From assembly GCA_965223845.1 (NCBI GenBank), contig CBDCXR010000004.1:288001-352000 (forward strand): a stretch of DNA of 64,000 nucleotides. Direction: 5' to 3'. Shown here one piece after another: positions 6,171 to 28,073 of the stretch; the stretch's first letter is position 1, and each line of letters begins with the position of its first letter. The notes beneath the pieces were generated by a model, which saw nothing but the letters and a program-made list of their open reading frames with translations, searched no databases and was not told the origin of the DNA. The stretch comes from Planctomycetota bacterium. Its GTDB lineage: Bacteria > Planctomycetota > UBA8108 > SXIK01. The position numbers and the translations under genes are program-made.

Positions 6171-6362
6171 TAAACGCCGGCGTGTGCGGCGGTTGGGTGG
6201 ACGGGTGACGGGGCGGTCGGGCGCGTATCGAGGCCGGAGAGGGCTCGAGTGTCCCCGAAGTTGCCCTCTTTTGATGTGAGGACAGTTCGTGGCGAGGCGT
6301 GGAAACTCGTGACGAGGCGGTGCTCCTCGAGGAGTCTTGTGGGACAGCGTCTCGCCAGGCAA

Positions 6363-9402: not shown

Positions 9403-11067
9403 GCGGGAGCAACGTTCGACGAGTCGGCCGCGCGCTGGGCACCGTCGCTTCGAGCAGGGGTCGCTCGCGCGGAAGTCGCCGCCGCGGCGGCCGAGTTCGC
9501 GGGGGCGGCCGATTGGCAGTCGCTCTCCCCGCTTCGCATCGCGAAGTTAGCGCGATTCCTCGAAGACGACTCGGTCGATCGACACCGATTCTCACTTCGC
9601 TGGACGGCAGATCTCACCGCGCCGGTCTCGGACGACTTCGTGTTCTCGATCGAGCGACGGGGAGGAACGGCGCGCGTCTGGATCGGGGGAACACTGGTTC
9701 TGGATTCAGCGGACGAAGCGGATCCGACGGGCGAAGGCGGCCCAGACATCTCCGAAGAGAGCGCTCCGGTCACACTGACCGCGGGCACGGCGATCCCGCT
9801 TCGCGTCGAGTATGTCTTCGATGCCGACATCGCCCGGGCGGAGAGCGAGGATCTCGAGTGGCAGAAGGAGCTCGAGCACGGCTGGTGCCACCTCTTCCTC
9901 CGGTGGCGAGGAAGCACCGGTGAGGCCGCAGTTGTCGCCGGGGATGTTCTTTCCGCGGCGGGAGAGTCCGGCGCGGTCCGTAGTTGCTACGGGAACCTCG
10001 AGCTCGAGGGCGATGCGGCGACGAGCCGGGCGAGCGAGATCGGGTTCCTCCTCGGGGGCGGCGCACCCGAATCGGCGCGGCGTCCACTCCAGCGGCAAAT
10101 GGCCGAGCGCGCACTCGCTCGAGCCGAGAGCGCGGAGTTCCTTGCGAGCGACGACCTCTCCGATCTCTTCTGGCTCTCGCGCGAGGCCGCGGAGTACACG
10201 ACGGTCTCGGAGAAGGCGTCGATCCTGAAGACACTCGCGCGCAATCCCGGCGCAATGGCGGATATCCCAGCCGGCGAGATCGACCACCTGCTCAACGCTC
10301 ACCGGTACATGCTCGGTGCGGAGACAACGGACGTGGTGGCGCAGTGGTGCACGCTCGATCCTGCGGTGGGAATCGAGTTCGGCATCTATCCGAGTTGGTC
10401 GCTCGAGCAGCCGAGCTACCTTCACCAGAACTTCGGTGGCTACTGGCACATGGCGCCGAAGCTCACGGGTGACGACGAGCTGAACCAAATCGTCGCCGCG
10501 ACGGAAGAGCCGGACGGAAGCTGCAATCTCAGGGCTGCGCGAATCGCGGCCTTCGCCCATCGCGCCGGCGATCGATTGACCGGCTGGACGCAGTACCTCG
10601 ACGGAGTTCTCGCGCGTGAGGGGCTGAGCGGAAACACGCGCGTGAGTTGGCTCCTCGCGCGAGCGTACGCAGAAGAGCTCGCCGAGCGAGAGACGCCGAT
10701 CGTGCTGGCGGGCCGAACGTGGCTCGAGGAAGCCCTCGAAAACGCGGAATCGGAACCGGTGAAGGTGCGCGTGATCGGCGAGATCACAGCGAGAGAAGCT
10801 GCCCTGGGGCGTGGGGATGCCGCGCGGGCGCTGCTGGACGAGCACGCGCAGTCGGTGTCGGCCGAATCGCGCGGGCGATTCGCGAGCTGGCGAGGACGGG
10901 TCGAAGGGATCGAAGCCTACTACGCGGCGCAGGTGAAGCGGCAGGAGCGGGAGCAGCGCGAGGCGTACGTCGCGGAGCTCGAAGATCGGCTCGCTCGGGC
11001 CGAGCGGGATGGGGATCCCGTGCGGATCGAGCGGTATCGGCGTCGGCTTGAGGGGGTGGGGCGATGA
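9403..11067 (+). pseudogene. PA14-domain/helical-repeat protein, 5' truncated
   Basis: The frame of ORF 9640-11067 is open back to 9361 and reads FSLRWTADLTAPVSDDFVFS...RVWIGGTLVLD...VTLTAGTAIPLRVEY (PA14-like). No credible start before the integrase junction. Confidence 0.7.
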
Positions 11068-14000
11068 GAGCGGTGACGAGATTCGAGCGGGTGGTGGCGA
11101 GCTGCGAGATTCGGCTTCGAAATGAAGGCACGTGTGAGGGACCGAGCGAGATGAACCTAAGGAAGACGAGTTCTGCGGGGCGGGGGAGTTGCCGGGCTCG
11201 AAAGTGCGTGGCGTGGTTCGGTGTTGGGTTGATCGTGTTTGTCGTGGTCGCTCCGATGGCGAGGGCGAGTACGACGCTCGAGGGCAATCAGTTTCCGTTC
11301 TGTGCTCCCGTGTGCGGCTCGTGTGACGAGTGCGAAGATTCGACCGAAGACTGCGCCGGAGGGGTCGCTGGACCGGAAGCCACACCGGCTCCGATTTTCC
11401 TCTACCGCGGGTCTGCGATCGAGAAGGTCACCGACCTCGCCATGGGAGATGTCGCGATCCCGTGGTCGCACACGCGTACCTACGACAGTCTCCTCGCGGC
11501 CACCTCTGGCAGTTATCCCGCGCCAAACGGAGAAAAGTGGTTCATGGGTCTATCGCAAACCTACATCAACCAGGAAAGCGGTGACATCGTTCTTTACGAA
11601 AGTGCATCCAACAAACACGTATTCGCATCTAACGGTTCCGGTTGGGATGCTCCAGCGTACCTAAACGCCACCATCGTAAAAAGCGGATCGGGAACGTCGG
11701 AAATCTACACGGTCACATATCCTTCAAGCGGAAAGGTTCTAATCTTTCACGGATTCTCATCGAGTCCGTCCATTTTGAATGGAAAACTGAAAGAGCGGAC
11801 AAGTCAGAATCTCCAAGCGGCGAGTGAGGACGGTCATACCTACACGTACCACACGGCAAGTTCGAGCGATCCGTATTATGGAAACGTAAAACAGGTCATG
11901 CTGACCAGTGGGCTAAAAGTGGCGTACACATATCTCAGTTCCGGATCAGAGGCGGGGTTTCTTGACAAGGTCGAAGTCAAGGATCCAACCAACACCGACG
12001 TGATTAAGAAGGTCGAGTACACTTACTTCTCTGAGGTGGGCAGCGCCCACTCCGATGTTGGATCGACTGGAGACCTGGTGCAGGTGAAAACGTCGCATCT
12101 GGCCTCGGACGAGACCACCTGGATTTCAAGATACACGCAGTACCGATACTACAAAAGCACGTCGTCCGACGGGGACGTCCATCAGCTAAAGGCGGTCTAC
12201 GACTCGGGAGCGATCGAGCGAATCATCGACTCGAATTCGAACATCTCGAATGCCGACGCCATTCTTGGTAAGGCGGACACGTACTCGACGGGCGGGCCGG
12301 CCGCGATTTCCGCGTACGCGATCAGAAGCTTTACCTACTACACGTCGAATCTAAGCACGAGTTCGTCGGTGACGACTCCGTGGGGTTCGCATAATCTAAA
12401 TACTAGGTACGAAGCGAGCGATCTGGCGGAGGACGGGTTCGTAAAGACGGAAGCTATCGGAGCCGGCTGCGGTAGCTGCGGTGCGGCTGAAGGTGGAACC
12501 ACGCGAACCTACTTCTACCTTGAGAACAACACGCTCTCTGGCATCCATCGGGTCCGACGAATCGTAGTCGAAGACGTGGAGGACGGGGCGTCAACGCCAA
12601 CTGCGGTGTACCGAAGAATCTACGGACTAAACGAAAAAGGAGTCGCGTTAAGGAAGGCGTTCATAGAAGACCCTGACACCGACGAAAACGACCCCTCAGA
12701 AGTACTCACGGCGTGGTGCCAGTCAATAACCGTCGGGACGTCCACTTCGTCTCCGAACGACTATGCGCGCGTGCTTGAGGCGCGATCGCCGTCAGCGCAT
12801 GTACTTGTCAATACCGAACTTGATCTTAGAGACTTCTTCGATCCTTCAGACACGGGAAACGACTCCGCGACACTCGAAGGAAGCGCCGGAGTCATTTATG
12901 TATATGAGTACAACTCGGACGGCTACCGAACAGGATCGCGAGTCAAGAAAGGGAGTTCCGGAACGTCTCACTACGTAGATGCTGTCGATTGGGGAGACGG
13001 GACCAACGATAAGCCAGAACATTTGACGGTGGCAACATACGCATACCACACGCGCACGACCACCAGGTCTGGAGGCGAAAAGACGTCGTTTGTGTATACG
13101 TTTTGGGATGCCGGCGACTCTGCTATTAAGACGGTCGAAACGACGCTTCCAGTGGTCCCGACTACGAGAAAAGGGTCCGGAGTCGCGACAAAGATGAGTC
13201 GCTACTACGACGATAGAGGGAGGCTTCGGTGGACGCGGGATGGAGAAGATCGAGTTTCCTACCGGTCTTATCACCCGGATAATGGTCGGCTGGCGTACGA
13301 AATGAGAGACGTCAACGCGGACGACACTCTTCCTTCCGAAATTCAGAACGGACTTAGCGGAAAGTTCGATGGATGGGGGAGTGCTGACGCTCCGACGGGT
13401 TTTGATCCCGTCACGTCGGACAATCTCGAGCTGGTCACGAAGACGGAATACGATGATCTTGGCCGGACTGAAAAGACCGTCCGACCGGGAGGATCAGAAC
13501 ACTACACGATTTATAACGATGGTGAAGTGATCAGCGTGCCGTATTGGAGATCGACGGTTTCGGAGCGACTGTCCGCGGCAACAGTGCGTCGATCGGATCA
13601 CGGCGGTGATCGTACAGAGGTGTTTTCCGTGCCTCCAGCGGAGATAACAAGCTCCGGCGGAGTTCCGACTGGGCTCAGCGCAGGACAAGACGACTATCTA
13701 TCCTGGATTCGCTGGACTCACGACGACGTCACCGGGCGGGAAGAGTACGTGGACCGGTACCACCTCATTCCCGCGACCGGTGATGGTTCCGTTTCGACCA
13801 ATTTCTACCGTACGGTTCGACAATACGACGACTTGGGTCGCGAGCAGTATCTAATCCAAGTCGTAAGCGGAGAACTCACGACCGGTGTGGAGCAGGTAAC
13901 AAAGACGACGTACGATGTCCTAGGGCGCGTCACCAAGGTAGAAAGAGGAGTTAGTGCCAGCGGATCGGGCAACTCTATGGGATCGGATTACAGCTCGAAG

Positions 14001-17000
14001 CCGACTCTGGCGATCGTCTCTGAAACCGAGTTCGATGGTGGAAACGTGGGCGATGGACACATTTCGAAAGTAGTTTCCTACCATGGAACGGATACCGCCG
14101 AAGACAAAACATGGGTCGAGTTCCACCGGACTTTTCGCGGTCACTTGAGAGGCGAGGAACGTTACCATCGTGAAAACTCTACGGACACGACCGTCGCTCC
14201 ACACCTTGTCCACGACATTGATTGGAAGGGCGCGATCACCGCGACCGCAACGTTCAAAGCGAACCCGTCCTGGTCGACGATTTTGTCGGGTGACGACGGT
14301 TACGACGACTACGCCGACTACTCCGGCGTGCGAACAAACCGAGTCTCGCTGGTTGCCGTCTTTCGAGACGACTTGCATCGTGTCTATCGGAAGCGAGTTT
14401 ACGAGGTGGATTCTTCTGGAGATCGGGGGAGCTCGGTTCGAAACGACATCTACTACGACCGAAACTCCCGAGTCGCGATCGAGCACGAGTACAATGGGAG
14501 CAGTGTAGAGCACGCCTACGACGGAGTGGGAAGGCGGTACCAGACTCGAACCGTAGCGGATTCGACCGGAACTGGGTACAACACCACAACGGGCGCTGTT
14601 GACTACCACTCGCCGGAACCGAAAGCAGATCTTTCGGACATGACCGGCGGGGATGACAAGATCGTCGAGATCGTGCACCGAGAGTTTGACGACGCTGGAA
14701 ACGTCACCGGTGTTCACCGGTTCGAGATGAACCACGACGACTCGACGGCCGGAGTGGATTTCACCGCAGACGACGACTACGTGCGAACTACGGAGTACTT
14801 CTGGTACGACCGAGCCGATCGGCGCACGACGGCTGCGAGCTACGGATCGGGCGGGTCGACCTGGGACTACCACGCCGTGCCGACTCGTGGAACGGCTCCG
14901 ACGGCGAGCAGCGCTACCGTTTTGGTCAGCGAGTTTTCCTACACGCTGGAAGGCCAGTTGGAATCGGTTACCGATGCGGAGGACACCGTTACGTCTTATC
15001 TGTACGACGACCTTGGGCGAGCTACGCAGGAAGAGCGAGACGACGATGGAACGGACGAGGTGATTCTGGAGATCGCGTACGACGGCCTCGATAATGTCGT
15101 CGAGCGGGAAGATGGCGCGAACAACGCGACCACGTATCTCTTTGAGGATGTCTACGATGCGGCCAGAGTCACGAACGTAATCCATCCGGACTCGACGGAT
15201 ACCACGTCAGCGGGCACGGACCAGGAGAAGCTTACATACAATCTTGATGGCACAGTCAAGGACAGGACGGACCAGCGAGGAGTCAAGCTCGAGTTCGAAT
15301 ACAACGGGCAACGACGAGTAGAACTTCAAAAAGCGACGATTCCGTCTGGAAGCGACGTAGACGATGCGGTGAAATCTCTCAAGTACGAGTACGATGGTAT
15401 CGGACGTCTCGAAACCTCAAGCTCGTACCAGAGCGCGGATGGAACCGGGACACCGCTTAACCAAGTGAAATTTGAATACAACGACCTTGGACAACTGTCG
15501 AAGTCGTACCAAGAACACGACGGCAACGTCTACACTTCGACGAGTCCCGTGGTGGAATACTCATACGCCGCACTCTCGGACAGGGCCCGCCTTGCGCACG
15601 TTAAGTATCCTGCCGGTCGAGAGATCCACCTCGATTACGGCGGATCCAATTCTGTGACTGACCGTTTGCATCGGTTCCGGGGGTTTGAGTCGGATACGGG
15701 AACCGAGTACGTCACGTATGAGTACAATGGGCTGCGTCGGCTCGTTGAGGCAGATTACGTTGGTCCCGGAGTTTCCCTCGACTACGACCATGGCTCTGCG
15801 GATGAGTACGAGGGATTCGATCGTTTCGGTCGCGTCGTAGATCACTATTGGAAGGGTACGACAGACATCGACCGCTTTCGGTACGATTACGACTACGCGG
15901 GAAATCCGAATTATCGAGATATCGATCTGCCTACGTCTGTCTTCTCGGCAGACGATAAGGATCAAGATTTCGAATACGACGCGCTCCATCGCTTGACGTC
16001 GTACGATCGCGGCACATTGTCTGGTTCGTCGATCGGCTCGCCGAACTTTGCGCAGGACTGGACGCTCGACGATCTCGGAAACTGGGATCCGTTCAAGTGG
16101 GATCCCGACGGGAGTGGTGCCGCTTCGCTGATAACTCAGAGCCGGGACCACAACGACGCGAACGAAATCGATACCACGAACGACCATTCGGATGCGGCCG
16201 GGAACAGCATCAGCGGAACCGGGGCCGATTGGGTGGATCCTGTGTATGATGCGTCCGGGAATTTGGTCGAGGGGCCGCGGGCGGGCGACGAAACTACACG
16301 AAACACGTATGTGTACGACGCGTGGAATCGATTGGTCGAAGTAAAAGACGGATCGACGACTCTCGCGGAGTACGAGCACGACGCGCTCTTTCGGCGAATT
16401 GCGAGCGAGGATCAGGGATCAAGCGGAAATCCGACGAAGCACTATTTCTACAACGCCGCGTGGCAGGTTGTTGAAGTACGGCTTGAGACTTCATCGGTGA
16501 TCGATCCGGATCCTCTCGAGCAGTTTGTTTGGCATCCGTATTATATCGACGCGGCTGCGGTGCGTTTTTACGACTCTGATGTGAACGGTAGTTCGGTTAC
16601 TCACTACTACACGAACGACACGAACGCGAACGTTACGGCGCTCGTGAACTCTAGCGGGAGCGCCATCGAGCGGTACGAGTACGAGCCGTATGGGCAGGTG
16701 ACGGTCCTAGATGCTGATTTCACTGACGATTCTGACTCTCCGGTTGGGGAGACGGACTACGACAACTTTGTGTTGTACACTGGTCAGTGGTGGGATGGGG
16801 AGCTTGCGGGGTATTGGTATCGGTTTCGGAATTATGCTCCGACGCTTGGGCGGTTTCTGCAGCGGGATCCGATTGGGGTTTGGGGGGATGGTGGGGCTTT
16901 GGGGAATGGGTATTCTTATGTTGGGGGGCGGGCGACCAGTTTTCGGGACCCTTCGGGCGCAGAGGGAGATCCAAGCTCTGTGACTATTAGCGGTGAGGTT

Positions 17001-17612
17001 GTGTTCAAGAAGAGATTCTCGATCAAATTCGAGACAACGGTTCGGTGTGAAGGTCCCAAAGTGATCCACAGCGGTGTTGACCAAGCGTACCAAGTAGATT
17101 TCGACACTTCGGACGGCGGGATGGAGCGGTCGTGGGTCGAGTCGGATATAGATTGCGGAGAGGGGCATCCTCCAGGAATTATCATACATTTTGTAGGGTC
17201 CCGTTACGACGGGTACGAGGGATACATCGAAAAGTTCGGGATACCTGGTGCGGCCGTGGGGGCGGTTGCCTATGGCGCTCCAGTGCTGTTTAGTGGAGCT
17301 GGCGCCGCAGCGACTGGCGAGGCCGCTGCGAAGGGTTCCGCCATCGTAGGCGCGATTACTTCAGTGTTTGGGGCTTTGGTTACCATGGCTTTCGATGAAT
17401 CGTGGGAGTTGAGCTGGCGTATGCAATGGTCTGTGTGTTGTAAGTGTATAACACAAGGTCCTACGCAGGACGGGGGTGATTTAGATGACGTGTGGTGGCC
17501 GGTCGTTAAGTATATGAAAGATGAGCCCGCTCATCAATTTTCGGTGGGTAACGAACCTGCATTCAATCGTGGGGCGAACCCAAGAAACGTGACATCAACC
17601 CACAGTCCGTGA
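11064..17612 (+). CDS. Rhs/YD-repeat polymorphic toxin with signal-peptide-like N-terminus (start 11064 or 11151)
   Basis: Many YD repeats; Rhs core LYTGQWWDGELAGYWYRFRNYAPTLGRFLQRDPIG...YSYVGG...DPSG (16947-16958), then a ~215-aa tip. Confidence 0.93.
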   Translation: MRAVTRFERVVASCEIRLRNEGTCEGPSEMNLRKTSSAGRGSCRARKCVAWFGVGLIVFVVVAPMARASTTLEGNQFPFCAPVCGSCDECEDSTEDCAGGVAGPEATPAPIFLYRGSAIEKVTDLAMGDVAIPWSHTRTYDSLLAATSGSYPAPNGEKWFMGLSQTYINQESGDIVLYESASNKHVFASNGSGWDAPAYLNATIVKSGSGTSEIYTVTYPSSGKVLIFHGFSSSPSILNGKLKERTSQNLQAASEDGHTYTYHTASSSDPYYGNVKQVMLTSGLKVAYTYLSSGSEAGFLDKVEVKDPTNTDVIKKVEYTYFSEVGSAHSDVGSTGDLVQVKTSHLASDETTWISRYTQYRYYKSTSSDGDVHQLKAVYDSGAIERIIDSNSNISNADAILGKADTYSTGGPAAISAYAIRSFTYYTSNLSTSSSVTTPWGSHNLNTRYEASDLAEDGFVKTEAIGAGCGSCGAAEGGTTRTYFYLENNTLSGIHRVRRIVVEDVEDGASTPTAVYRRIYGLNEKGVALRKAFIEDPDTDENDPSEVLTAWCQSITVGTSTSSPNDYARVLEARSPSAHVLVNTELDLRDFFDPSDTGNDSATLEGSAGVIYVYEYNSDGYRTGSRVKKGSSGTSHYVDAVDWGDGTNDKPEHLTVATYAYHTRTTTRSGGEKTSFVYTFWDAGDSAIKTVETTLPVVPTTRKGSGVATKMSRYYDDRGRLRWTRDGEDRVSYRSYHPDNGRLAYEMRDVNADDTLPSEIQNGLSGKFDGWGSADAPTGFDPVTSDNLELVTKTEYDDLGRTEKTVRPGGSEHYTIYNDGEVISVPYWRSTVSERLSAATVRRSDHGGDRTEVFSVPPAEITSSGGVPTGLSAGQDDYLSWIRWTHDDVTGREEYVDRYHLIPATGDGSVSTNFYRTVRQYDDLGREQYLIQVVSGELTTGVEQVTKTTYDVLGRVTKVERGVSASGSGNSMGSDYSSKPTLAIVSETEFDGGNVGDGHISKVVSYHGTDTAEDKTWVEFHRTFRGHLRGEERYHRENSTDTTVAPHLVHDIDWKGAITATATFKANPSWSTILSGDDGYDDYADYSGVRTNRVSLVAVFRDDLHRVYRKRVYEVDSSGDRGSSVRNDIYYDRNSRVAIEHEYNGSSVEHAYDGVGRRYQTRTVADSTGTGYNTTTGAVDYHSPEPKADLSDMTGGDDKIVEIVHREFDDAGNVTGVHRFEMNHDDSTAGVDFTADDDYVRTTEYFWYDRADRRTTAASYGSGGSTWDYHAVPTRGTAPTASSATVLVSEFSYTLEGQLESVTDAEDTVTSYLYDDLGRATQEERDDDGTDEVILEIAYDGLDNVVEREDGANNATTYLFEDVYDAARVTNVIHPDSTDTTSAGTDQEKLTYNLDGTVKDRTDQRGVKLEFEYNGQRRVELQKATIPSGSDVDDAVKSLKYEYDGIGRLETSSSYQSADGTGTPLNQVKFEYNDLGQLSKSYQEHDGNVYTSTSPVVEYSYAALSDRARLAHVKYPAGREIHLDYGGSNSVTDRLHRFRGFESDTGTEYVTYEYNGLRRLVEADYVGPGVSLDYDHGSADEYEGFDRFGRVVDHYWKGTTDIDRFRYDYDYAGNPNYRDIDLPTSVFSADDKDQDFEYDALHRLTSYDRGTLSGSSIGSPNFAQDWTLDDLGNWDPFKWDPDGSGAASLITQSRDHNDANEIDTTNDHSDAAGNSISGTGADWVDPVYDASGNLVEGPRAGDETTRNTYVYDAWNRLVEVKDGSTTLAEYEHDALFRRIASEDQGSSGNPTKHYFYNAAWQVVEVRLETSSVIDPDPLEQFVWHPYYIDAAAVRFYDSDVNGSSVTHYYTNDTNANVTALVNSSGSAIERYEYEPYGQVTVLDADFTDDSDSPVGETDYDNFVLYTGQWWDGELAGYWYRFRNYAPTLGRFLQRDPIGVWGDGGALGNGYSYVGGRATSFRDPSGAEGDPSSVTISGEVVFKKRFSIKFETTVRCEGPKVIHSGVDQAYQVDFDTSDGGMERSWVESDIDCGEGHPPGIIIHFVGSRYDGYEGYIEKFGIPGAAVGAVAYGAPVLFSGAGAAATGEAAAKGSAIVGAITSVFGALVTMAFDESWELSWRMQWSVCCKCITQGPTQDGGDLDDVWWPVVKYMKDEPAHQFSVGNEPAFNRGANPRNVTSTHSP

Positions 17613-17739
17613 CTTGCTTGGAGAGTTGCGGTGGATTTTTGCCTCGTGACTTTGTGAGGCACGGAAAAAAGGCTTGCCTTGGCGGGCCGACTTTGCGGGC
17701 GGTGACGTGCACTCAGTGCGTTCGGAATCCTTGTGATTT

Positions 17740-18315
17740 ATGAGAATGGAGGGATCGGTTTTGAATGGTGTGCGAGAGAGATATTTTAAGCGAGATGTAT
17801 CGTGTCGGTGTAGCCGGAGGTTCGGGCGAGGGAGAGTTTTTGTAGTTTTTGCGTTCGCGTTTTGGTCGGCGATGCAGTTTTCTGGCTGTGGTGATGCCAC
17901 GGGGGCTCGAGCTGTGGGCGTCACAGAATTTAACGGTCGTTCGGTTTTCTATGCCTTTTCCGGAGGGTGTTGGAAGTTTCTGGTCATAGTGGATGCAGTT
18001 CCAAGGTTTTCGTATCCGGTCACGCGGGAGTCGGACCGCTCGCGAACGTTTTTGAACTATGGTTATTCGGAAAGTGAGTTTCGGATTACCATCGAATCTA
18101 TAGGTGATCGTGTTGTTGTGAATGGATCAGAGTTTCAAGGGGCCGAGGGAGTAGTCTTTGCAGTTTCGAATGAATCCGGGAAGATAGAGCAGGTGTCTGT
18201 TCGCGCGGACGAGATCGACAGTTGGAGGGCGCCGGAGGCGATCGGTCCAGCTGTGCGTGCGCGCGTGCAAGCGCTATCGAGGGAGGGGGGTGCGTTGGCG
18301 GATGCTCTTCGGTAG
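17740..18315 (+). CDS. Candidate immunity lipoprotein for the Rhs toxin
   Basis: Directly downstream of Rhs, low GC, hydrophobic stretch ending in FSGC lipobox; start uncertain. Confidence 0.6.
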   Translation: MRMEGSVLNGVRERYFKRDVSCRCSRRFGRGRVFVVFAFAFWSAMQFSGCGDATGARAVGVTEFNGRSVFYAFSGGCWKFLVIVDAVPRFSYPVTRESDRSRTFLNYGYSESEFRITIESIGDRVVVNGSEFQGAEGVVFAVSNESGKIEQVSVRADEIDSWRAPEAIGPAVRARVQALSREGGALADALR

Positions 18316-18330
18316 AGGGAGCCCTTCACA

Positions 18331-18452
18331 AGAGCCCCGGAACCCGGTGTCCGTCCGCGCCCCCTCCCCGCGCCCCCGCGCGCGCCCGCCCCGCCCGCCC
18401 CCGGAACCCGGTGCCCGTGAGGACTAACCGGGTTCAACTGGAAATGCGTACG
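18331..18452. repeat. REP-like (GAG)CCCCGGAACCCGGTG repeats and hairpin, set 1
   Basis: Copies at 18331-18357 and ~18399-18418; perfect 9-bp inverted repeat GAACCCGGT (18404-18412)/ACCGGGTTC (18427-18435). Confidence 0.8.
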
Positions 18453-18647
18453 CATAAATAGTTATCTTGGCAAGGGCGAGACGCTCCTCCGTCGCCTCAA
18501 TTGCGCCGGAGCACGACCGAATCAACACAAGTTCACAGCGGACGCCAAGTTCTCAATCGAGAACCGACTTGCTGAAGCGAGTCCTTCCCCACCCAGCCGC
18601 CGGATCTTGGCGCACTCGGAGGCCCGAACGAGCTTGTTCGGTGGCCG

Positions 18648-19095
18648 CTACGGAGCGGCTGGAACCGCCCCTGAGAGCATCGGCTCACACTTCTGCCGGT
18701 GAAACGCCCGCATCCAGTACGTCCCGGCGGGGAAGACGACGTTCTCGACACCGGCGCGATACAGCTCGAGTGCCGCTCGATAGCAGTCGCGGAACGTGAC
18801 CAGCTCCTTGAGCTCTTCGATCCTCGGTCCCGGTCGCCTCGCCTGGATGGTCGGCGACAGCTTCCACTTCTTCTCGTAGCTCTGCGGGCAGTCGGTCGGA
18901 CTTTCGCTCCGGGCCCTCTTTTCTCCGAGAAACCCCGGCCCCTCCTTTTCGATTTCGGCGCGGCACTCCGCTTCTCGCTCGGCGACTTTCTGTTCGAGCT
19001 CTCGGACGAGCTCTTCGCGATCGTGCTCGGCGAAGCAGGGAGGCGGGGTGATCTCGAGCGGAACTTCGTCCGGCATCTGATCGGAGAAGAACCAG
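18648..19095 (-). pseudogene. 3' fragment of a probable REP-associated tyrosine (HUH/Y1) transposase
   Basis: FFSDQMPDEVPLEITPPP...FRDCYRAALELYRAG.ENVVFPAGTYWMR resembles the C-terminal region of long RAYT-like transposases. The catalytic N-terminus is absent, so the call rests on motif recall. Confidence 0.65.
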
Positions 19096-19204
19096 CCGCT
19101 CTGGCAGAGAGTCTCGGAGGAGTAGACAAGCGGGACTGGCGAAATCGAGTCGACTCACGCGGGACGTTGTGGGGCGGCGAGCGCGCGATGGACTCACTCC
19201 AGGA

Positions 19205-19298
19205 TCATTCTGCGAGGGCGGCGTGGACACGTTCGGCGTTGGTTTCAGCGGCTCGAACCCAAAGCTCGAGATCTTTCGTGAATCTCGGCTCGGCATGA
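19205..19298 (-). pseudogene. Fragment of a nucleotidyltransferase-like gene
   Basis: FHAEPRFTKDLELWV...NAERVHAALAE matches the PRxTxDxD motif of small NTase-fold proteins; no start and an early stop. Confidence 0.5.
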
Positions 19299-19498
19299 AA
19301 CTCTCGAATCCGAGTCCATGTACATTCGAGATCTTCGCACACGGTGTTCGGCCAGGGAGAGTGTCCCTCGAGTGTCCCCGAACGAACCGTCGCGGGGCGT
19401 GAAACCTGGGTATTCGACTGGGAGGCGTGAGTCCGTATCTTACGTCGATTTCGCGACTTGTGTCGTTTTGCGCCGCTCCGGAGAGCCCCTCCCTCGAG

Positions 19499-19559
19499 TT
19501 TGAAAACCACTGTCCTCGCAAGGGGACCCAGGGTTCGAATCCCTGCCTCTCCGCCATAA
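19499..19559 (+). repeat. att direct repeat (3' half of tRNA-Ser) between islands 1 and 2
   Basis: Identical to 6113-6173, beginning in the anticodon loop. Confidence 0.97.
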
Positions 19560-19933
19560 GTTTTGGCGAGTGGGGCGGTTCGGGGCTTGGACGACCGGGC
19601 GTCAGAGCGGGCGAACGGGGTGAAATGCGGGCGAGTGTCCCTCAGGTTGCCCTCTTCTATTGGGGGGACTATCCGACGCGGGGTGTGCAAACTCGTGACG
19701 AGGCGCCATTCGCTTGGAGTAAACGTCTCGAAGTGGGATTCGCGGTGCGGTTGACTCGAACCTGGGAAGCTACCCAACGACCTGGGATCCGTACGCGGAC
19801 GCCACGAAAGACGGAGAGGCGCGAGTGAATCGCCGCGAATTGAATTAGTGGGAACGAACGGCCCGACGAATTCGCATTCGGGTTCTCCCCGGAATGTCGA
19901 TCGGGCCGTCGCGTGCGGTTTTCGGAGGTGAAG

Positions 19934-20473
19934 ATGAGCGGAGTCGATCTCGTCGCCGAGGAATATCAATGCTCCGACGTTGCTGCCAGTGTCATCAGAA
20001 TCCTTGTCACCCGATCTGAGGACGGGCGCAGGGCGGACCCGACGATTCAGATTTCTGAAGCGGCATCCCTGCTAGACACGGATGCGGAGCGGGTCGTAGA
20101 CGCAGCGGCTGAACTCAACGGGCGCGTCGAATTGCGGCGGCAAGATGGTCAGCCAGGCGGCTGGGATCTTCTTCCGACGCCGGCGTGTTTCGCGGAATTC
20201 GATGGATTCTTCAAGGACTGGGATCCGCGGCAAGACGCGGAACGCGTCGTTCGCGAGCTCACGCGCGACGGCAGACAGAGCGCGAGTAGCACACAGATCG
20301 CAGAGCAACTCGAATGGCCCCCTCGTCGCGTGAACCCGGCCCTTTCGTATCTGATCGAGAACGGTCTTGTGGACTGGAGTCGCTCGATCAGCGCGGTCCC
20401 TTACATCACGTCGGGGCTGATCGCGACGCCAGAGACACGGAACTTTGTCCCCCACGCCGAAATCTTTGCCTGA
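19934..20473 (+). CDS. Hypothetical protein with winged-HTH-like segments
   Basis: GGAGGT RBS; STQIAEQLEWPPRRVNPALSYLIENGLVD is HTH-like. Confidence 0.65.
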   Translation: MSGVDLVAEEYQCSDVAASVIRILVTRSEDGRRADPTIQISEAASLLDTDAERVVDAAAELNGRVELRRQDGQPGGWDLLPTPACFAEFDGFFKDWDPRQDAERVVRELTRDGRQSASSTQIAEQLEWPPRRVNPALSYLIENGLVDWSRSISAVPYITSGLIATPETRNFVPHAEIFA

Positions 20474-20543
20474 TGATCGAGAGATCCAAGTAGAGGAATT
20501 CGCCGGACCGTAGTGGCGGCCGAGCCGCCAGAAAGGACCGGAG

Positions 20544-20995
20544 ATGGTCGGCGAGTTTGAGGATTGCGGAGAGCGGGAACGTGAGCGGGACTCGGGCGGT
20601 TGCAGTGACCGAGAGGACGCCTGGGACCCTGCGGCGCGAGAGGGCGAGGGTCTCGAGGAGACGCTCGTCGAAAGCGGCTATGAGGAGACGGAAATCGAGT
20701 ACGTGTGTTCTTGTCCGAGAACGCGGGATCCCAGACGCAGGAGACCGATTTTGAGAATTCTGGAGTTTTACACTACGAGGAGCAGCAAAGAGGGTGCGAT
20801 GAAGTTTGTATCACGGTGCGGGTTGGGCTCGCCGTGACCTCCGGCGACAGTGGCGGCATTAGCGTGAAGACTTCTCCGAAGGGCGGGCCGGATGTGTCGT
20901 TCAGTTTTTCAAATCCGACAGGAACATTGGGGAGTTTTACGAAAACGTTGGGGACGTGGTGTTGGAGTTGCAAGGAGGTGGTTGATCTGCAATAG
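20544..20995 (+). pseudogene. Probable orphan polymorphic-toxin C-terminal fragment, frameshifted
   Basis: ORFs 20544-20837 and 20705-20995 join into one Cys-rich acidic peptide if one base is restored at ~20717 (CSCP-ENAGSQ). It precedes an immunity-like gene and has a G/T skew like the Rhs tip. Confidence 0.45.
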
Positions 20996-21306
20996 CGATT
21001 ATCGGGACCGGGAGGAGATTAACAGTTTCCTCGGTCCCGAACCCTCGCTTTGGAGTGCGCTTGCGGCGACCAGGGCGGAGTGCAGGTCGATTTTCGTTAA
21101 GCGGAAGCGGGCGATTCGGGGGTCGAGGAAAGCGAAGGGCGGGCGCTTGCGTCGTCGGGAGACAGGGCGTGAGAGTTTTGATCCTTGGTCGAGTCAGGCG
21201 TTGTGGCTATCAAGCTGATCTGCGGCGGCTCGTTCGCGTCGCCGCTGCTGGGGCGTGGTTAGGGTAGTTCTCCGTGTTTTGAGTATGTCTTGAATCCTAC
21301 TGGGAA

Positions 21307-21819
21307 TTGATCGGAACGCGTGTTTTGATTCGTGACCAAGCAGGGGCGACCCGTCGTTTTCCAATACGCGCGGTTCTCGGAGTCGTGATGATTCCGTGGA
21401 TTGCTTTGATCATATTCTTCGGGTTGCGTTACTGTAAGACGGTTGATCAATCACGTACTTCTATTCTCTATGGTATTTCGACTTCTTCTCACGAATCCAG
21501 AGAAGCGGAAGTGGTCAAGGTGGCAGTGGCGTGCGAGCAGTTTTTGACTGCGGCGGGTTTTTCGCCGAGGGTGGGTTCTACTTTTACGACGTGGGAGCGG
21601 CGGTCGCGCGGGGGCGCTTTGGCGATTACGGTTATAGTTGGGGAGAATTCCCTTCGTGGCAGCTGGACAGTAAAGGTCCGGTGGCGGTTTCGGGGACCGC
21701 ATTATCGTTATTTGCGGTGTACGCGTGAAATGCGTCTTGTGGTTGATGGTTTGAACCGGGCAATTGCTTCTGGGGTCGAGAAAGGTGCAAGGATCCTAAA
21801 GACGACGATTTCAGAATAG
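21307..21819 (+). CDS. Membrane-anchored hypothetical protein, candidate immunity
   Basis: 170 aa with an N-terminal TM helix, low GC, and the same position relative to the repeats as 17740-18315. Confidence 0.55.
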   Translation: MIGTRVLIRDQAGATRRFPIRAVLGVVMIPWIALIIFFGLRYCKTVDQSRTSILYGISTSSHESREAEVVKVAVACEQFLTAAGFSPRVGSTFTTWERRSRGGALAITVIVGENSLRGSWTVKVRWRFRGPHYRYLRCTREMRLVVDGLNRAIASGVEKGARILKTTISE

Positions 21820-21821
21820 AC

Positions 21822-22033
21822 AAGAGTCCAGAAGAGTCCAGAAGCGTGAAGAGCCCCGGAACCCGGCATTCGGCATCGGTACGCGTGAAATGCGTCTTGT
21901 GGTTGATGGTTTAGAAGAGTCCCGGAACCCGGTGCCCGTCCGAATTGACCGGGTGCATTTCGAAATGCGTACGACCGAGCCCCGGAACCCGGTGCCCCTC
22001 CGAATCGACTGGGTTCATTTGCAGATGCGTACG
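21822..22033. repeat. REP-like repeat cluster, set 2
   Basis: AAGAGTCCAG x2 (21822-21841). GAGYCCCGGAACCCGG occurs at 21851, 21917 and 21977; the last two start tandem ~60-bp units ending in ATGCGTACG. Confidence 0.8.
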
Positions 22034-22227
22034 TAATAAAGCTTATATTCACGAGGGGGGCGCCGTCCCGTCGTCGCCTCGATCGCACGCCGTCACGACG
22101 GAATCAACGGAGGTTCAGAGGGGACGCCAAGTTCTCGATCGGGAACCGTCGAACTGAAGGCAGTCGTTCCCCACCCAGCCGCCGGCTCTTGGCGCGCGCG
22201 AGACCTGAACGAGCTGGTTCGGCCGTC

Positions 22228-22435
22228 CTACGGGGCGGCTGGAACCGCCCCTGAGAGCATCGGGTCACACTTCTGGCGGTGGAAGACCCGCATCCAGTAC
22301 GTCCCGGGGGGAAAGACGAGGTTTTCGACGCCGGCGCGATACAGCTCGAGCGCAGCTCGATAGCGATCGCGCCGAGAAACCCGGGTCCCTCCATTTCGAT
22401 TTCGGCGCGGCACTCCGCTTCTCGCTCGGCGACTC
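22228..22435 (-). pseudogene. Second, internally deleted 3' fragment of the same transposase family
   Basis: YRAALELYRAGVENLVFPPGTYWMRVFHRQKCDPMLSGAVPAAP is nearly identical to the end of 18648-19095. Confidence 0.7.
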
Positions 22436-22703: not shown

Positions 22704-24242
22704 TCACGGGAACCGCACCGTGGCGACGACGTCATTCACCGCGCCGAGGTGCGAGACCGTCATACCGACGTCCGAGAAGGCGAAGATATAATCGTCGATG
22801 AAAGCGGATCGACGGAGGCCATCGGCCATGCGCACCCAAAAGGTGATGTGGGGTTCCCCGTCGAGTCTCGCGAAGCCATCTCGCGGACTCACCTTGTAGA
22901 CAAGGATACCCGAGAGCCCATCCCGTTCGTTTCGTGCCTCGAGAGCCACGGGAAACGCGAGGAGATCGTGGCTCGAATAGAACGTAAGCGCTCGATGATC
23001 GCGCTCCGCTCGAGACGAGAAGGCCGCGGGAAGTCGCGCATCGTGCCTCAGTGTCGGATTCGCTGGATCCGACACATCGAACATCTGAACCTGGAGACCA
23101 CCGACCCGCCCGAGATCGTCTCCGTCGCTGCCGGTACGACCCAAACCGACAAGATGATCGTCACCGAACGGATGGAGGTAGGTGGAGAACCCCGTGATGT
23201 GTAGCTCACCCATCACTCGCGGTGTCGCGGAATCCGACAGATCGATGGTAAAGAAGGGATCGCGAATGCCCTTCCGGGTAACCAGGTAGCCTCGATCCCC
23301 TGCGTACCGAATAGCGGAAAGACACTCTTCCGGCGCGAGCCCTCGCAGTTCTCCCACGCTCGAGAGCTCGCTACCATTCCTCTCGAGCACAAACACGTTG
23401 TTCGCTTCGACCGTACCCTCCACGGTTCCCGACGACCGGTCCGTGGTGGCGACGCGGAGAAACCCATCGTGTTCCGACATGGAGAACTGTGAAAGAATCC
23501 TCCCGCGAACCACGCCAGAAGCCTCGTAGACCGGAGAGCCGCCGTTCAGGTCGAACCGGTGAATCCGAGTTGCGGCAACGCGCAAACCGGTTCGCAGCCA
23601 CGTTCGCGTGTCCTGCGCGATGTAGATCGAGCTTCGGGAACCGTAAACCGTCCAACCGCGAGCGAGAAGATCAACGTCCGCGAGCACTTCGCTCTGGCGG
23701 ACGGCCAGACTGGACGGGTCGATTCCCAAGACGCTCAGCACACCGCGGTCGCCGGGGTTACCGTCTCGCGGGTAGCGAATCGTCGCGAGATAGACGACAC
23801 CGTCGACCGAGCGTCCACCGATGAACGATCCCTCGAGGTCGAAACGGGATTCGATCCGCGGCCGAGCCGGGTCACTCATATCGAGCACGGTGATCCGGGT
23901 GGCGGAGAACGTCGCCGCATCGGAGTCCTGGAGGACCATCGTCAGCGCTATGAGCCGGTCGCCGACCAGGAACATCGAGTCGCCGCGTCCTTCGAGCTCC
24001 GCGGTTGCCGCTAGCTCGCTTCGCGGGGGTGGCCACGCATCGGTGACATAGAGGGTCGAGTCCGCGATGTAGAAGACGTATTCACCGTTCGTCTTCAGTA
24101 GATCCGGCTCGTCCACGCCTGCTTCCTGCACGTTGGTCGTCGTAAAGCTCGACGGACCCGCGGGTTCGTCTGACGCAAAGTGGCCGCGGCCCGTCGCGAT
24201 CAAAACGAGCAGAGTGAGAGCGCAGGATCTTCGATACAACAT
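22704..24242 (-). CDS. Secreted beta-propeller domain protein (Beta_propel family)
   Basis: Signal peptide; TTNVQEAGVDEPDLLKTNG, SQFSMSEHDGFLRVATT, GELHITGFSTYLHP. Confidence 0.88.
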   Translation of the reverse strand: MLYRRSCALTLLVLIATGRGHFASDEPAGPSSFTTTNVQEAGVDEPDLLKTNGEYVFYIADSTLYVTDAWPPPRSELAATAELEGRGDSMFLVGDRLIALTMVLQDSDAATFSATRITVLDMSDPARPRIESRFDLEGSFIGGRSVDGVVYLATIRYPRDGNPGDRGVLSVLGIDPSSLAVRQSEVLADVDLLARGWTVYGSRSSIYIAQDTRTWLRTGLRVAATRIHRFDLNGGSPVYEASGVVRGRILSQFSMSEHDGFLRVATTDRSSGTVEGTVEANNVFVLERNGSELSSVGELRGLAPEECLSAIRYAGDRGYLVTRKGIRDPFFTIDLSDSATPRVMGELHITGFSTYLHPFGDDHLVGLGRTGSDGDDLGRVGGLQVQMFDVSDPANPTLRHDARLPAAFSSRAERDHRALTFYSSHDLLAFPVALEARNERDGLSGILVYKVSPRDGFARLDGEPHITFWVRMADGLRRSAFIDDYIFAFSDVGMTVSHLGAVNDVVATVRFP

Positions 24243-24266: not shown

Positions 24267-25433
24267 TCATGTTCTGGAGAACAGTTCGGTAATTGCCGAG
24301 TCGTCCCCGAATCCGTAACGAGCGCCATCGATACCGAAGGCCCACAGAACCGTATTTAGGACCTGACGGCTCGAGAAAACCTGACCTCTCGTCGGCTCCC
24401 AGGAATCCGGATCGACGTCTCCGACTACGGTGCCTGGACGAATGGCTCCACCGCCGACGGGAAAGGTCTGGTAGCGGCACGCGTTGGTGCCCCGGTGGTC
24501 GCTGCCGCCGGTTCGATTGAAGCCCGTGCGCGGCGATGTGTTGTCCCGCCCGAACTCGGACACGCCCAGGACCATGGTGTGGTCCCAGAACGTTCCCCCG
24601 AGTGGGTGAAGGCTGTTTGTCAGCGCGAAGTGGAGGCCCTGAAGAGCCCGACCGTACGAGCGCATGAGGCGTTCGAACGTCGCCTGCTCTCCCTCGTGCG
24701 TGTCGTACCCGGGCACTCCGACGGCGACCGCGGGACTCCCACGTTCGATCAGCTTGGCAGCGAGCGCGACGCGCGGTCCCCAGAGTTCGTCGTCGGCGAA
24801 GATCTCACGCGCCAGCGGGCTCGCACGGATTTCGCTGTGCCCGGTACGCTCGAAGAAGTCGCGTCCCGAGAGGACCTTGGGCTCTGCAATGCGCCATCTT
24901 CCCGGTGCAGCCCCGAACACCCACGCGGTCTCACCGACGATGAATGCCGGGATGCCCCGATCCAGACCGATTTCCCAGTTGATGATCGTGTGAAGTCCGA
25001 CTCCTCCAGTGGGATCGCCGGTACCCATGCGGAGGTACCCCGTTCCGTGTCCACCGTCACCACGCGGCGCCCCGGGTGTGTGATCGACACTACCGAGGAC
25101 CGAGTACGTGTCGGAGAGTTCGGCGAGGCTCGGAATCGTGCGGCCCAGGCTGGGGATCGGGACGCGTGCGTCGTCGAAGATGGCTCCGACGCGCCAACCG
25201 CGGCTTCCCGGACTCACGCCGTAGGGATTGAATTGACGGTGCGTGGCTGCGTGAAACGCCGCGCTCGAGCGCAGGCCGCCTCCCGCGTACATGAGGATCA
25301 GGTGCTTGACCGGTGCGTCCGGTCGAGTCTGCGCCCAACCACGTCGAGTCCAGGGGCCGGGCCAGGTGATCGCGCCCGCCGTCGCCAACGCGGCGCCGAC
25401 GAATTGCCTGCGCGTCGCGGTTCTCTTTCGCAT
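24267..25433 (-). CDS. Tat-exported DUF1501-like protein
   Basis: TRRQFV twin-arginine signal; LILMYAGGG, GYDTH, VSEFGR and GSDH motifs. Confidence 0.82.
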   Translation of the reverse strand: MRKRTATRRQFVGAALATAGAITWPGPWTRRGWAQTRPDAPVKHLILMYAGGGLRSSAAFHAATHRQFNPYGVSPGSRGWRVGAIFDDARVPIPSLGRTIPSLAELSDTYSVLGSVDHTPGAPRGDGGHGTGYLRMGTGDPTGGVGLHTIINWEIGLDRGIPAFIVGETAWVFGAAPGRWRIAEPKVLSGRDFFERTGHSEIRASPLAREIFADDELWGPRVALAAKLIERGSPAVAVGVPGYDTHEGEQATFERLMRSYGRALQGLHFALTNSLHPLGGTFWDHTMVLGVSEFGRDNTSPRTGFNRTGGSDHRGTNACRYQTFPVGGGAIRPGTVVGDVDPDSWEPTRGQVFSSRQVLNTVLWAFGIDGARYGFGDDSAITELFSRT

Positions 25434-25569
25434 GGAGACGTGTCCAGTTCGGGTGATGGGTCGGGATCCACTCCATTTGGAAGGGTAGAAGCGCTCGCCG
25501 CGTGGCCCTTCGATCTCTAACGATTCTTCTTTCGTTCCATCTGAAGGCGACGTGGCCCCACGATTCGGC

Positions 25570-27129
25570 TCAGCGGTAATGGCATCGCTCTGACAGGCAC
25601 CGCCTCGCCAACTCGACCGCGCGCTGCGCGCATACAGCCGCGGATCCACCCTCTTTGAGGCACATAAGGAAACGGTGTCGAACGAGGCGAGCACAACGTT
25701 CCTCGCAATGCGGTGAGGGAGGCTGTTCGCACGGCCCTTCGAACAGCACATCGGCGCCGCTGCAGCGAGCCTCGCAGCGGTTGTCGTAGGTCACTCCGTC
25801 CGACCCGCACACCGGGTCGTAGATATCGGGGCAAACACAGTCCTCGCACTCACCCTCGTGGGCGATGTCGACACCGGCACAGCGAGCGAAGCATGCGTTG
25901 GCATAGGTGATTCCGTCGACGCCACAGACTGGATCGTAGATCTCGGGGCAAACACAGTCCTCGCACTCACCCTCGTGGGCGATGTCGACACCGGCACAGC
26001 GAGCGAAGCAGGCGTTGGCGTAGGTGACTCCGTCGACGCCACAGACTGGGTCGTAGATCTCGGGGCAGACACAGTCCCCGCACTCACCCTCGTGCGCGAT
26101 GTCGACACCGGCACAGCGAGCGAAGCAGGCGTTGGCGTAGGTGACTCCGTCGACGCCACAGACTGGGTCGTAGATCTCGGGGCAGACACAGTCCCCGCAC
26201 TCACCCTCGTGCGCGATGTCGACACCGGCACATTGAGCGAAGCAGGCGTTGGCGTAAGTGATTCCGTCGACGCCACAGACTGGGTCGTAGATCTCGGGGC
26301 AGACACAGTCCTCGCATTCACCTTCGTGAGCGATGTCGACACCGGCACATTGAGCGAAGCAGGCGTTGGCGTAAGTGACTCCGTCGACGCCACAGACTGG
26401 GTCGTAGATCTCAGGGCAGACACAGTCCCCGCACTCACCCTCGTGCGCGATGTCGACACCGGCACATTGAGCGAAGCAGGCGTTGGCGTAAGTGACTCCG
26501 TCGACGCCACAGACTGGGTCGTAGATCTCAGGGCAGACACAGTCCTCGCATTCACCTTCGTGCGCGATGTCGACATCGGCACATTGAGCGAAGCAGGCGT
26601 TGGCGTAGGTGATTCCGTCAACGCCACAGACTGGGTCGTAGATTTCTGGGCAAACACAGTCCTCGCACTCCCCCTCGTGCGCGATGTCGACACCGGCACA
26701 GCGAGCGAAGCAGGCGTTGTCGTAGGTGATTCCGTCAACGCCACAGACTGGGTCGTAGATTTCTGGGCAAACACAGTCCTCGCATTCACCCTCGTGGGCG
26801 ATGTCGACCCCTGCACATTGAGCGAAGCAAGCGTTGTCGTAGGTGATTCCGTCAACGCCACAGACTGGATCGTAGACGAGGGGACAGACGCAGGGTTCGT
26901 TGCACTCGCAGGTTGGACAGCCGTCGGGTCCGAGCTCGTGGCCGAACTCGCAGAAAACACCGCAGGGCAGCGGTTCGCAGTCACCAGTGTCGTACGCGTC
27001 ATTCCCAACGATCTGCTCGTGTGCGTGCCCCTGTGGCCGCTGCACCCCGAAACCGGCGGCGAGCGCAACCATCAGCATCCCGAGAGTGATCCACCTGAAT
27101 CGAGCTGGTCTTGTCAGTTCTGCTAACAT
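25570..27129 (-). CDS. Secreted antistasin-like + 10x Kazal-type protease inhibitor protein
   Basis: GGAGG RBS and signal/TM segment; [26 protein letters not shown]; ten CVCPxxYDPVCGxDGxTYxNxCxAxC...GxC units. Confidence 0.92.
25723..26892 (-). repeat. Coding tandem repeat, 10 x 117 bp
   Basis: Near-identical 39-codon Kazal units. Confidence 0.93.
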
Positions 27130-28024: not shown

Positions 28025-28073
28025 TTGGAAAATCACCGCTCTCGCAAAGGGACCCAGGGTTCGAATCTTTGCC
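28025..28073 (+). repeat. Degenerate att repeat (tRNA-Ser 3' half)
   Basis: 41 of 49 bases match 6113-6161, including GGGACCCAGGGTTCGAATC. Confidence 0.85.

Follow-up and report, generated by a model that had tools for sequence, protein, structure and literature searches.

The C-terminal tips of Rhs proteins can be displaced by homologous recombination at the Rhs core. In Escherichia coli, an insertion-sequence (IS)-like H-repeat (H-rpt) adjoins these tips, as stated in the excerpted account of that association (PMC3032704). Repetitive extragenic palindromic (REP)-associated tyrosine transposases (RAYTs), in the part of the survey drawn on here, are portrayed as usually single-copy and linked to dispersed REP/REPIN sequences (PMC5581495). 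Among related enzymes, the extracts of a broader classification give TnpA_Y1 subclasses 2.1 and 2.3 NH[YF]H/NHYH motifs, long C-terminal domains and several copies, and list them without REP sequences (PMC6006769). A RAYT-type TnpA_REP has been proposed, in the sections of a preprint used here, to diversify the neighbouring hypervariable prochlorosin genes of picocyanobacteria, and a post-submission note by its authors states that there is no strong evidence for or against causation (bioRxiv 10.1101/2020.03.09.984088). A literature search returned no paper joining 'REP-associated tyrosine transposase' with 'polymorphic toxin'; one paper naming both RAYT and Rhs handles each separately in its accessible text. 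Here, these systems are compared with a locus on contig CBDCXR010000004.1 of a Planctomycetota bacterium (assembly GCA_965223845.1), where a stretch of 64,000 nucleotides (nt; positions 288,001–352,000, hereafter the window) carries the 3′ end of a RAYT-like Y1 transposase gene at two places, each facing a small open reading frame (ORF) and one of them an Rhs gene beyond it.

A preliminary description of the window had recognised two modules of the same order, each with a toxin tip or tip fragment, an immunity-like gene, hairpin repeats, a conserved non-coding segment and a convergent transposase end, and had proposed that the transposase exchanges toxin cassettes between the hairpin and the Rhs core. 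If true, such exchange would be a new site-specific, enzyme-driven route to diversify bacterial toxin tips. Transposase-driven cassette exchange is not supported by the analysis described below. The right-hand part of both modules is probably the decayed right end of a RAYT-like unit of ~1.3 kb and not a cassette-exchange device. The results support the more modest view that a widespread RAYT-like element, which unlike classical RAYTs moves as a whole unit, has left the 'module' as its footprint. The generic layout of this family, in which a spacer and terminal arrays lie tail-to-tail with a neighbouring gene, can be mistaken for a purpose-built module; where a conserved block adjoins variable toxin cassettes, the first possibility to test is that it is an element end.

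The shared right-hand block and its transposase remnants

Self-comparison of the window DNA by blastn, together with a repeat search, confirmed that the right-hand parts of the two modules are conserved and that their left-hand parts are dissimilar at the DNA level. Positions 18399–18791 and 21980–22371 are 80.3% identical over 396 nt, and positions 18925–18987 and 22372–22434 are 95% identical. To the left of the two repeat arrays, blastn detected no mutual DNA similarity. Each block consists of an array of terminal motifs, a spacer and the 3′ end of a minus-strand Y1 gene.

Array 1 (18325–18452, plus strand) is made up of a half unit (18333–18357), a GC-rich filler (18358–18397) and a full hairpin unit (18399–18452), and its predicted fold has an energy of −9.7 kcal/mol (z = −1.4). 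Array 2 (21844–22033, plus strand) begins with a half unit from 21855, followed by a 34-nt exact copy of 21719–21752 (21879–21912) and two full units (21917–21973 and 21977–22033) that are 86% alike. Hairpin units in the window are 55–60 nt long. As had been described, the repeats follow closely on the small-ORF stop codons, with the first starting 10–16 nt past the end of ORF 17740–18315 and 25–36 nt past the end of ORF 21307–21819. The motif CCGGAACCCGGT, with one mismatch allowed, occurs five times in the 64 kb (at 18337, 18401, 21856, 21922 and 21982), always on the plus strand and always beside the two Y1 remnants. This count compares with an expectation of 0.64 and was reached in one of 100 shuffles. 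The term 'hairpin repeats' holds in part: the motif is present at both sites, but a hairpin can form at only three of the five copies (7–9-bp stem, 14-nt loop), the remaining two being left arms only, and the stems are no more stable than those of shuffled sequences (z = −1.4, −0.1 and −0.2).

The two spacers (18453–18647 and 22034–22227, minus strand) lie between the Y1 stop codon and the array and are 77% identical. The ~250 nt of conserved non-coding DNA reported previously is reached by counting the terminal hairpin unit, but the strictly non-coding spacer (18453–18647) measures ~195 nt.

Beside array 2, a 34-nt perfect direct repeat (21719–21752 and 21879–21912, 160 nt apart) flanks the stop codon of ORF 21307–21819 together with the first half unit, and could be the footprint of a local duplication. 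The idea that the 3′ end of this ORF derives from the array was rejected, as 39 and 42 of 300 shuffles aligned equally well, and the exact 34-nt repeat therefore stands alone.

Sequence comparison identifies the minus-strand ORFs as predicted members of a RAYT-like Y1/HUH family. Copy 1 (18648–19094, minus strand) corresponds to residues 157–304 of a family protein of 304 amino acids (aa), i.e. to its C-terminal domain only; in a tblastn search, the family protein P0003 aligned with it over residues 157–298 at 75% identity. Within copy 1, an uninterrupted 142-aa ORF (18648–19076, minus strand) starts at the conserved, nearly invariant internal Met163. Copy 2 (22228–22434, minus strand) retains residues 255–304 and a frameshifted piece of residues ~193–213, ~70 residues in all. 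It has suffered a 133-nt internal deletion, equivalent to 18792–18924, and contains no intact ORF. No trace of the N-terminal catalytic domain was found anywhere in the window by tblastn with full-length paralogues. As both copies are devoid of this domain, neither would be able to cut DNA.

On its own, the 142-aa ORF matches no Pfam or NCBIfam family. When compared with proteins of like length, it matched itself and one other; against longer proteins, it matched eight of 270–304 aa on the same source contig, over its full length and at 63–77% identity, and one metagenomic protein at 38%. These full-length matches to 270–304-aa proteins show the ORF to be the C-terminal half of the 304-aa protein. 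It also equals the whole C-terminal domain, and a stand-alone product is conceivable.

The source genome contains at least nine paralogues in addition to the two remnants, making the gene multi-copy rather than single-copy. Copies 1 and 2 are 89% identical over 46 aa, compared with 61–80% to eight paralogues. P0002, a frameshifted paralogue outside the window, belongs to the same sub-lineage and reads through the same spacer, with 81% identity over 59 aa to 22286–22110.

The preliminary description had expected its FPAGTYWMR fragment to lead to full-length homologues with a Y1/HUH domain, and this proved correct. The full-length paralogues carry the motifs SNHYHL and (L/V)YTxCNPV, and 59 aligned sequences show no variation at residues H59, H61, Y119, N123 and W136. 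Five of five proteins matched the NCBIfam model REP_Tyr_transpos (NF047646) with E-values of 2.9e-18 to 3.1e-9, at scores (36.9–66.1 bits) that lie under its 80-bit cut-off. Against Pfam Y1_Tnp (PF01797), five of five proteins scored 15.1–21.4 bits, under the cut-off of 23. The best PDB match of a profile built from eight members was 4er8, the RAYT of E. coli (E = 1e-4), whose HuH and Tyr motifs fall in register with those of the family. Correspondingly, an AlphaFold2 model of the 304-aa protein (mean predicted local distance difference test score 95.7) gave 4er8_A as its top Foldseek match (E = 6e-6; target-normalised template modelling score 0.69 over 138 columns), followed at ranks 2–25 by Y1 transposases of the ISDra2/IS608 TnpA type. 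Residues ~150–304 form an extra C-terminal domain for which Foldseek found no PDB match. The family is large: a cut-off of E ≤ 0.001 yields 13,208 cluster representatives, and one of E ≤ 1e-30 still yields 1,184. The closest of 374 relatives in the genome collection is 46% identical, and a tblastn search of 72,556 plasmids with P0003 returned no match.

The unit and its neighbours in related genomes

The genomic context of the family was read from 80 loci kept of the 374 relatives. They represent 47 assemblies, in the main of Anaeromyxobacteraceae, other Myxococcota and Planctomycetota, and their flank DNA totals 1.27 Mb. Genes in these loci were called crudely, as the longest ORFs with raised GC content at the third codon position.

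Nearly identical copies delimit the element. In JAULAX, four copies are 99% identical over 9864–11124 (~1.26 kb), a fifth being similar only as far as the end of the gene; in L055, two copies of 1283 bp are 99% identical. The unit ends in both cases are inverted motifs of 14–17 nt, and the JAULAX copies show no evident target duplication. Across the sample, repeats of at least 12 nt were found 100–450 nt past the Y1 stop codon in 37 of 76 loci, compared with 5/65 and 8/66 in far-flank controls. The first repeat begins at a median of 207 nt past the stop codon in the family, and at 234 and 230 nt in the window. The arrays of the 80-locus sample reiterate the right-terminal motif in tandem and often in nested form. 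On the other side, an inverted motif at −190 to −90 from the gene was present in 34/73 loci, as against 6–14 of 65–72 in four control windows. This position-restricted count replaced a raw count of inverted 10-mers common to both flanks, which was uninformative (49/72 versus 30/63 in the control). In the window, repeats flank the gene on its 3′ side only.

The unit predicted from these sequences is ~1.26–1.3 kb long and comprises an inverted motif ~130 nt upstream, the gene, a spacer of ~200–250 nt and tandem terminal motifs. Given this architecture in the relatives, the hairpin repeats, non-coding segment and transposase end of the window are read as one object, the right end of the element. 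The window hairpin units would be the counterpart of the family terminal motif.

Two further features of the arrays were observed in the sample. Nested, partial tandem copies of the motif have a stutter-like appearance at L022 5400–5500, L012 11100–11360 and L055 7950–8010 and 12300–12395. Repeats also occur upstream of the Y1 gene, in 28/76 loci compared with 8/66 in the control.

The layout seen in the window is common around the family. The first gene past the Y1 stop codon is convergent in 53 of 74 loci, and the first gene before Y1 is co-directional in 45 of 76. The convergent gap measures 215–442 nt in 37 of the 53 (median 295), and the window gaps are 333 and 409 nt. A Pfam scan of 74 first and 67 second downstream genes revealed mostly ordinary or housekeeping functions, such as diacylglycerol kinase, asparagine synthase, FtsK, SmpB, TruB, peptidases, kinases and regulators. 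The order of gene stop codon, repeats, spacer and Y1 stop codon is the generic footprint of the family and is not toxin-specific.

Rhs genes were sought in the 80 loci by tblastn with the window Rhs protein, by Pfam, and by a phmmer comparison of four Rhs-family proteins with every ORF of at least 150 aa (4,243 in total). The association anticipated by the preliminary description was recovered in part: four loci (L003, L008, L031 and L061) have an Rhs-family gene, in each case convergent and downstream, but 76 of the 80 have none, and the window hairpin pattern occurs in 0/80. No Rhs-family gene lies upstream or in another orientation in these loci. In L061, an Rhs gene of 2146 aa is followed by a 206-aa ORF, which the Y1 gene faces across ~300 nt. 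The downstream genes of L031 encode a 3127-aa protein with SpvB, TcdB and RHS domains and a small ORF. In L008, an orphan 543-aa Rhs C-terminus and a 161-aa ORF are split by a 4-kb Mu-like transposon, and a second Y1 gene lies beyond. In L003, the distance to the Rhs gene is 3.8 kb, an interval that includes a further transposase gene and a thioredoxin-like gene. The Rhs-positive loci derive from three assemblies, L003 and L008 being from one genome, and form a small sample.

Other mobile-element genes (rve, IstB, Mu-type and DUF772) are found among the downstream genes of L003, L008, L014 and L067, so that they are about as frequent there (four loci) as Rhs genes (four loci); L003 and L008 carry both. 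An outcome of this kind is among those that the preliminary description had itself named as refuting its proposal. The link to Rhs is suggestive, but by these counts it does not exceed a general preference for accessory DNA. The link is small (4/80 loci) yet position-specific.

Locus L008 has some further features of its own. Its region 10001–20879 lies on the Planctomycetota chromosome OZ244999.1, and its 4-kb Mu-like transposon is 99.98% identical to L060 5004–9068. Past the arrays of its second Y1 gene lie the convergent ORFs 19833–20282 and 20195–20878, which belong to no family.

The tRNA-Ser islands and their cargo

Both remnants lie in islands bordered by tRNA-Ser sequences. ARAGORN placed a tRNA-Ser(TGA) at 6081–6170 on the plus strand (Rfam tRNA 53 bits, E = 1e-10). 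A perfect direct repeat of 61 nt involves this gene: the left copy is made up of the 3′ 58 nt of the tRNA and the next 3 nt (6113–6173), and the second copy, identified by alignment and blastn at 19499–19559 (plus strand), marks the right border of island A. The similarity extends ~150 nt past the repeats, with 6113–6319 and 19499–19705 being 77% identical over 208 nt. A third, decayed copy of the tRNA-Ser 3′ end (28025–28073, plus strand, 84%) is likely to be the old right border of island B, and the 21 nt preceding the second and third copies are alike. An ARAGORN call of a transfer-messenger RNA (tmRNA) at 19037–19556 (520 nt) was rejected, as it reached 16.4 bits against Rfam beta_tmRNA compared with a cut-off of 84; the call is artefactual because it is based on the tRNA-Ser 3′ fragment.

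Island A (6171–19559) contains a tyrosine recombinase (integrase; 8396–9595, minus strand; Pfam Phage_integrase E = 4.9e-18, Int_N 4e-4) along with the Rhs operon and with remnant 1, which lies 420 nt from the right border. Island B (19560 to ~28073) contains no integrase, and remnant 2 lies 5.6 kb from its old border. The two islands are tandem, related integrative elements at tRNA-Ser. Integration at tRNA-Ser explains the two islands but not the Y1 remnants.

The Rhs gene of island A had been correctly described as a core followed by a tip. It encodes a 2182-aa Rhs/YD-repeat protein (11064–17612, plus strand; Pfam RHS_repeat E = 2.9e-6), whose core ends at a DPSG motif (nt 16947, residue 1962); DPxG is the consensus for the end of an Rhs core. 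The C-terminal tip (16947–17612) has no Pfam family match and no Atlas lead. RHS repeats, the core-end motif and a tip outside known families are thus all present in this gene. A 191-aa ORF (17740–18315, plus strand, from the ORF list) starts 128 nt past the Rhs stop codon and is a candidate immunity gene by its position. GC content is flat across the Rhs core (0.56), tip (0.54) and small ORF (0.54), and there is thus no compositional seam of a recent tip swap.

Two observations concern the Rhs protein and its operon. An ORF of 475 aa at 9640–11067 (plus strand), with a weak PA14 match, overlaps the Rhs start codon by 4 nt and may belong to the same operon. A long hydrophobic stretch rich in Gly and Ala, of the kind found in membrane-inserting toxins, is present in both the Rhs tip at 16947–17612 and that at L008 11593–13224, and neither tip gave a family or Atlas lead.

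The cargo of island B was less readily matched to its earlier description. A 186-aa ORF (19913–20473, plus strand) shows sub-threshold similarity to winged-helix/helix-turn-helix domains, its best Pfam match being Sigma70_r3 at E = 9e-4, below the cut-off. The open frame at 20687–20995 (plus strand) is possibly what had been called a tip fragment. It has no Pfam or NCBIfam match, a search of proteins of 180–2000 aa gave no homologue (weak evidence), and no remnant of an Rhs core was found in 19558–21320 by DNA or protein similarity in any plus-strand frame; the tip fragment is therefore not borne out. Downstream, an ORF of 170 aa (21307–21819, plus strand, from the ORF list) encodes one hydrophobic helix and lacks any Atlas match. 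Neither this protein nor that of ORF 17740–18315 belongs to a Pfam or NCBIfam family, and 'immunity-like' is for both a label given by position only. GC content by codon position did not separate coding from non-coding frames in island B.

Beyond remnant 2, an ORF at 25570–27420 (minus strand) encodes ten Kazal-type inhibitor domains in a 117-nt tandem repeat of ten copies, 85–90% alike. Its neighbours are a DUF1501 gene (24267–25751) and a beta-propeller gene (22704–24242). ARAGORN also called a tRNA-Pro(GGG) at 30027–30117, which at 91 nt is unusually long for its type and is not listed by Rfam at the gathering threshold.

Competing explanations and comparison with known systems

In the favoured explanation, the product of the intact unit is a 304-aa RAYT-like Y1 (HUH) transposase that carries an additional domain at its C-terminus. 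In the tandem tRNA-Ser islands, two members of one sub-lineage would have landed behind the last ORF of toxin-type cargo, most likely by two ordinary insertions, and both later lost their 5′ halves and hence the ability to cut. Insertions just past a stop codon may be tolerated in accessory DNA, which would explain how the right end has persisted by the immunity gene, and selection against deletions that reach this gene may explain why the right end alone survived.

Several observations weigh against this account. The window motif GAACCCGGT is only loosely like the right-end motif of the family, the nearest family motifs being CAACCTGGGTC and CGAACCTGGGTC, in L061 and L034. Window units pair the motif with its inverse, a pairing seen in 0/80 loci. 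The architecture itself was read from relatives that are at most 46% identical, and not from the other Y1 copies of the source genome. Furthermore, all four Rhs genes of the sample lie within 4 kb downstream, a zone that makes up 22% of the flank DNA; the corresponding probability is 0.0024 by position alone and ~0.02 with the neighbour bias of the family taken into account (0.5 × 0.72 per locus), so pure chance does not explain the Rhs placement well. Finally, copies 1 and 2 are mutually closest and sit in related islands, which is compatible with a single inherited insertion.

This last possibility, in which an ancestral tRNA-Ser island already held cargo, array and Y1 gene and had its left cargo later swapped by ordinary recombination, is rather unlikely. 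It would account for the related island borders (the 61-nt perfect repeat, the 77% identity over 208 nt and the similar 21 nt), for the greater similarity of the two copies to each other (89%) than to the paralogues (61–80%), and for the truncation of both on the 5′ side. However, the truncation points and internal deletions differ, the remnants lie at unlike distances from their right borders (420 nt in island A, 5.6 kb in island B), and no homology exists outside the element. The spacer of P0002 is 81% like copy 2 (over 59 aa), compared with 80% between copies 1 and 2 at the DNA level, figures that are not directly comparable. A single insertion would also require the cargo replacement to have broken precisely at the edge of the array in one or both islands. 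The differing truncations and deletions and the lack of anything common outside the element thus argue for two insertions rather than one inherited insertion.

Exchange of tip and immunity cassettes by full-length paralogues acting in trans, with the hairpin as downstream and the Rhs core as upstream breakpoint, appears improbable. The genome has at least eight full-length paralogues with intact HUH and Tyr motifs that could supply the enzyme, and the Rhs genes of the sample are only convergent and near downstream, with the Y1 unit right behind the small ORF in L008, L061 and L031 and the Rhs gene at 3.8 kb in L003. In L008, the orphan Rhs C-terminus and its small ORF sit between two Y1 copies, and in the window homology ends within 10–36 nt of both small-ORF stop codons. 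Such a boundary at the array edge is nevertheless expected of any element end and calls for no special breakpoint. Both local copies have lost the catalytic domain, and the same layout is found beside FtsK, SmpB, TruB, peptidases and kinases in most loci, with Rhs genes absent from 76/80. Upstream of either cassette there is no copy of the motif, and island B has no Rhs core, so that a second breakpoint is missing. The flat GC profile over core, tip and small ORF and the nature of the islands as related tandem insertions also speak against exchange. One-ended capture of the ISCR/IS91 type was set aside. What ISCR/IS91 elements carry along is DNA past their end on the upstream side of the transposase gene, and the cassettes here lie on its 3′ side.

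It is very doubtful that the remnants have been put to use, with the array serving as an operon terminator or transcript stabiliser, or the 142-aa ORF regulating transposition. The ORF is unbroken from its nearly invariant Met163, and the arrays adjoin stop codons; against this, the hairpins are no more stable than shuffles and are not followed by a T run, and copy 2 has no intact ORF. A bolder proposal, to which we assign a low probability, is that the family docks preferentially tail-to-tail behind toxin/immunity operons in several phyla, and that its arrays provide a 3′ junction at which full-length copies acting in trans capture or shuffle cassettes.

If the remnants are read as the decayed right ends of RAYT-like units, the closest described relatives are the RAYTs themselves. 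Like RAYT/TnpA_REP (4er8), the family has an N-terminal Y1 HUH fold with the HuH motif, a Tyr in the Yxx(x)NP helix and a following WP, and, as in a REPtron, inverted copies of a short motif stand on both sides of its gene and also form tandem clusters. The family protein differs in being twice as long, with a ~160-aa C-terminal domain without a PDB match, and in scoring under the NCBIfam and Pfam cut-offs. In contrast to RAYTs, the family is multi-copy, with whole units 99% identical in some genomes, and its motif is not dispersed within the 64-kb window, where five of five copies lie beside the remnants.

The IS200/IS605 elements IS608 and ISDra2 resemble the family in their Y1 HUH fold and in being small, multi-copy units with structured ends and no evident target duplication (as at the JAULAX copies). 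The family ends are inverted 14–17-nt motifs rather than same-strand subterminal hairpins, its unit lacks tnpB, and it encodes a 304-aa protein with an extra domain instead of a short Y1 enzyme. In its Y motif, the family follows the RAYT type (NP) and not Y---Q, as these types are set out in the extracts of the classification (PMC6006769). TnpA_Y1 subclasses 2.1 and 2.3 agree with it in the NH[YF]H form of the HuH motif, in having a long tail domain and in occurring in several copies per genome; in the same extracts they are listed without REP sequences and with other host ranges, and the comparison is one of descriptions only.

Relative to the prochlorosin/TnpA_REP case, both the cargo and the phylum differ here. 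The islands resemble other Rhs islands integrated at tRNA genes, with a tRNA-Ser border, a 61-nt 3′ repeat, an integrase inside and tandem accretion, and have nothing unusual in this respect. H-rpt encodes an ISAs1-type DDE transposase and not an HUH enzyme, and we know of no established role for it in tip exchange. As far as the excerpted description of H-rpt extends, it provides the nearest precedent for the present locus, being likewise an IS-like element that recurs just downstream of Rhs tips. If preferential docking behind toxin operons and cassette capture at the arrays were true, the RAYT-like family would parallel the H-rpt/Rhs association on an HUH basis, and its role would be truly mechanistic.

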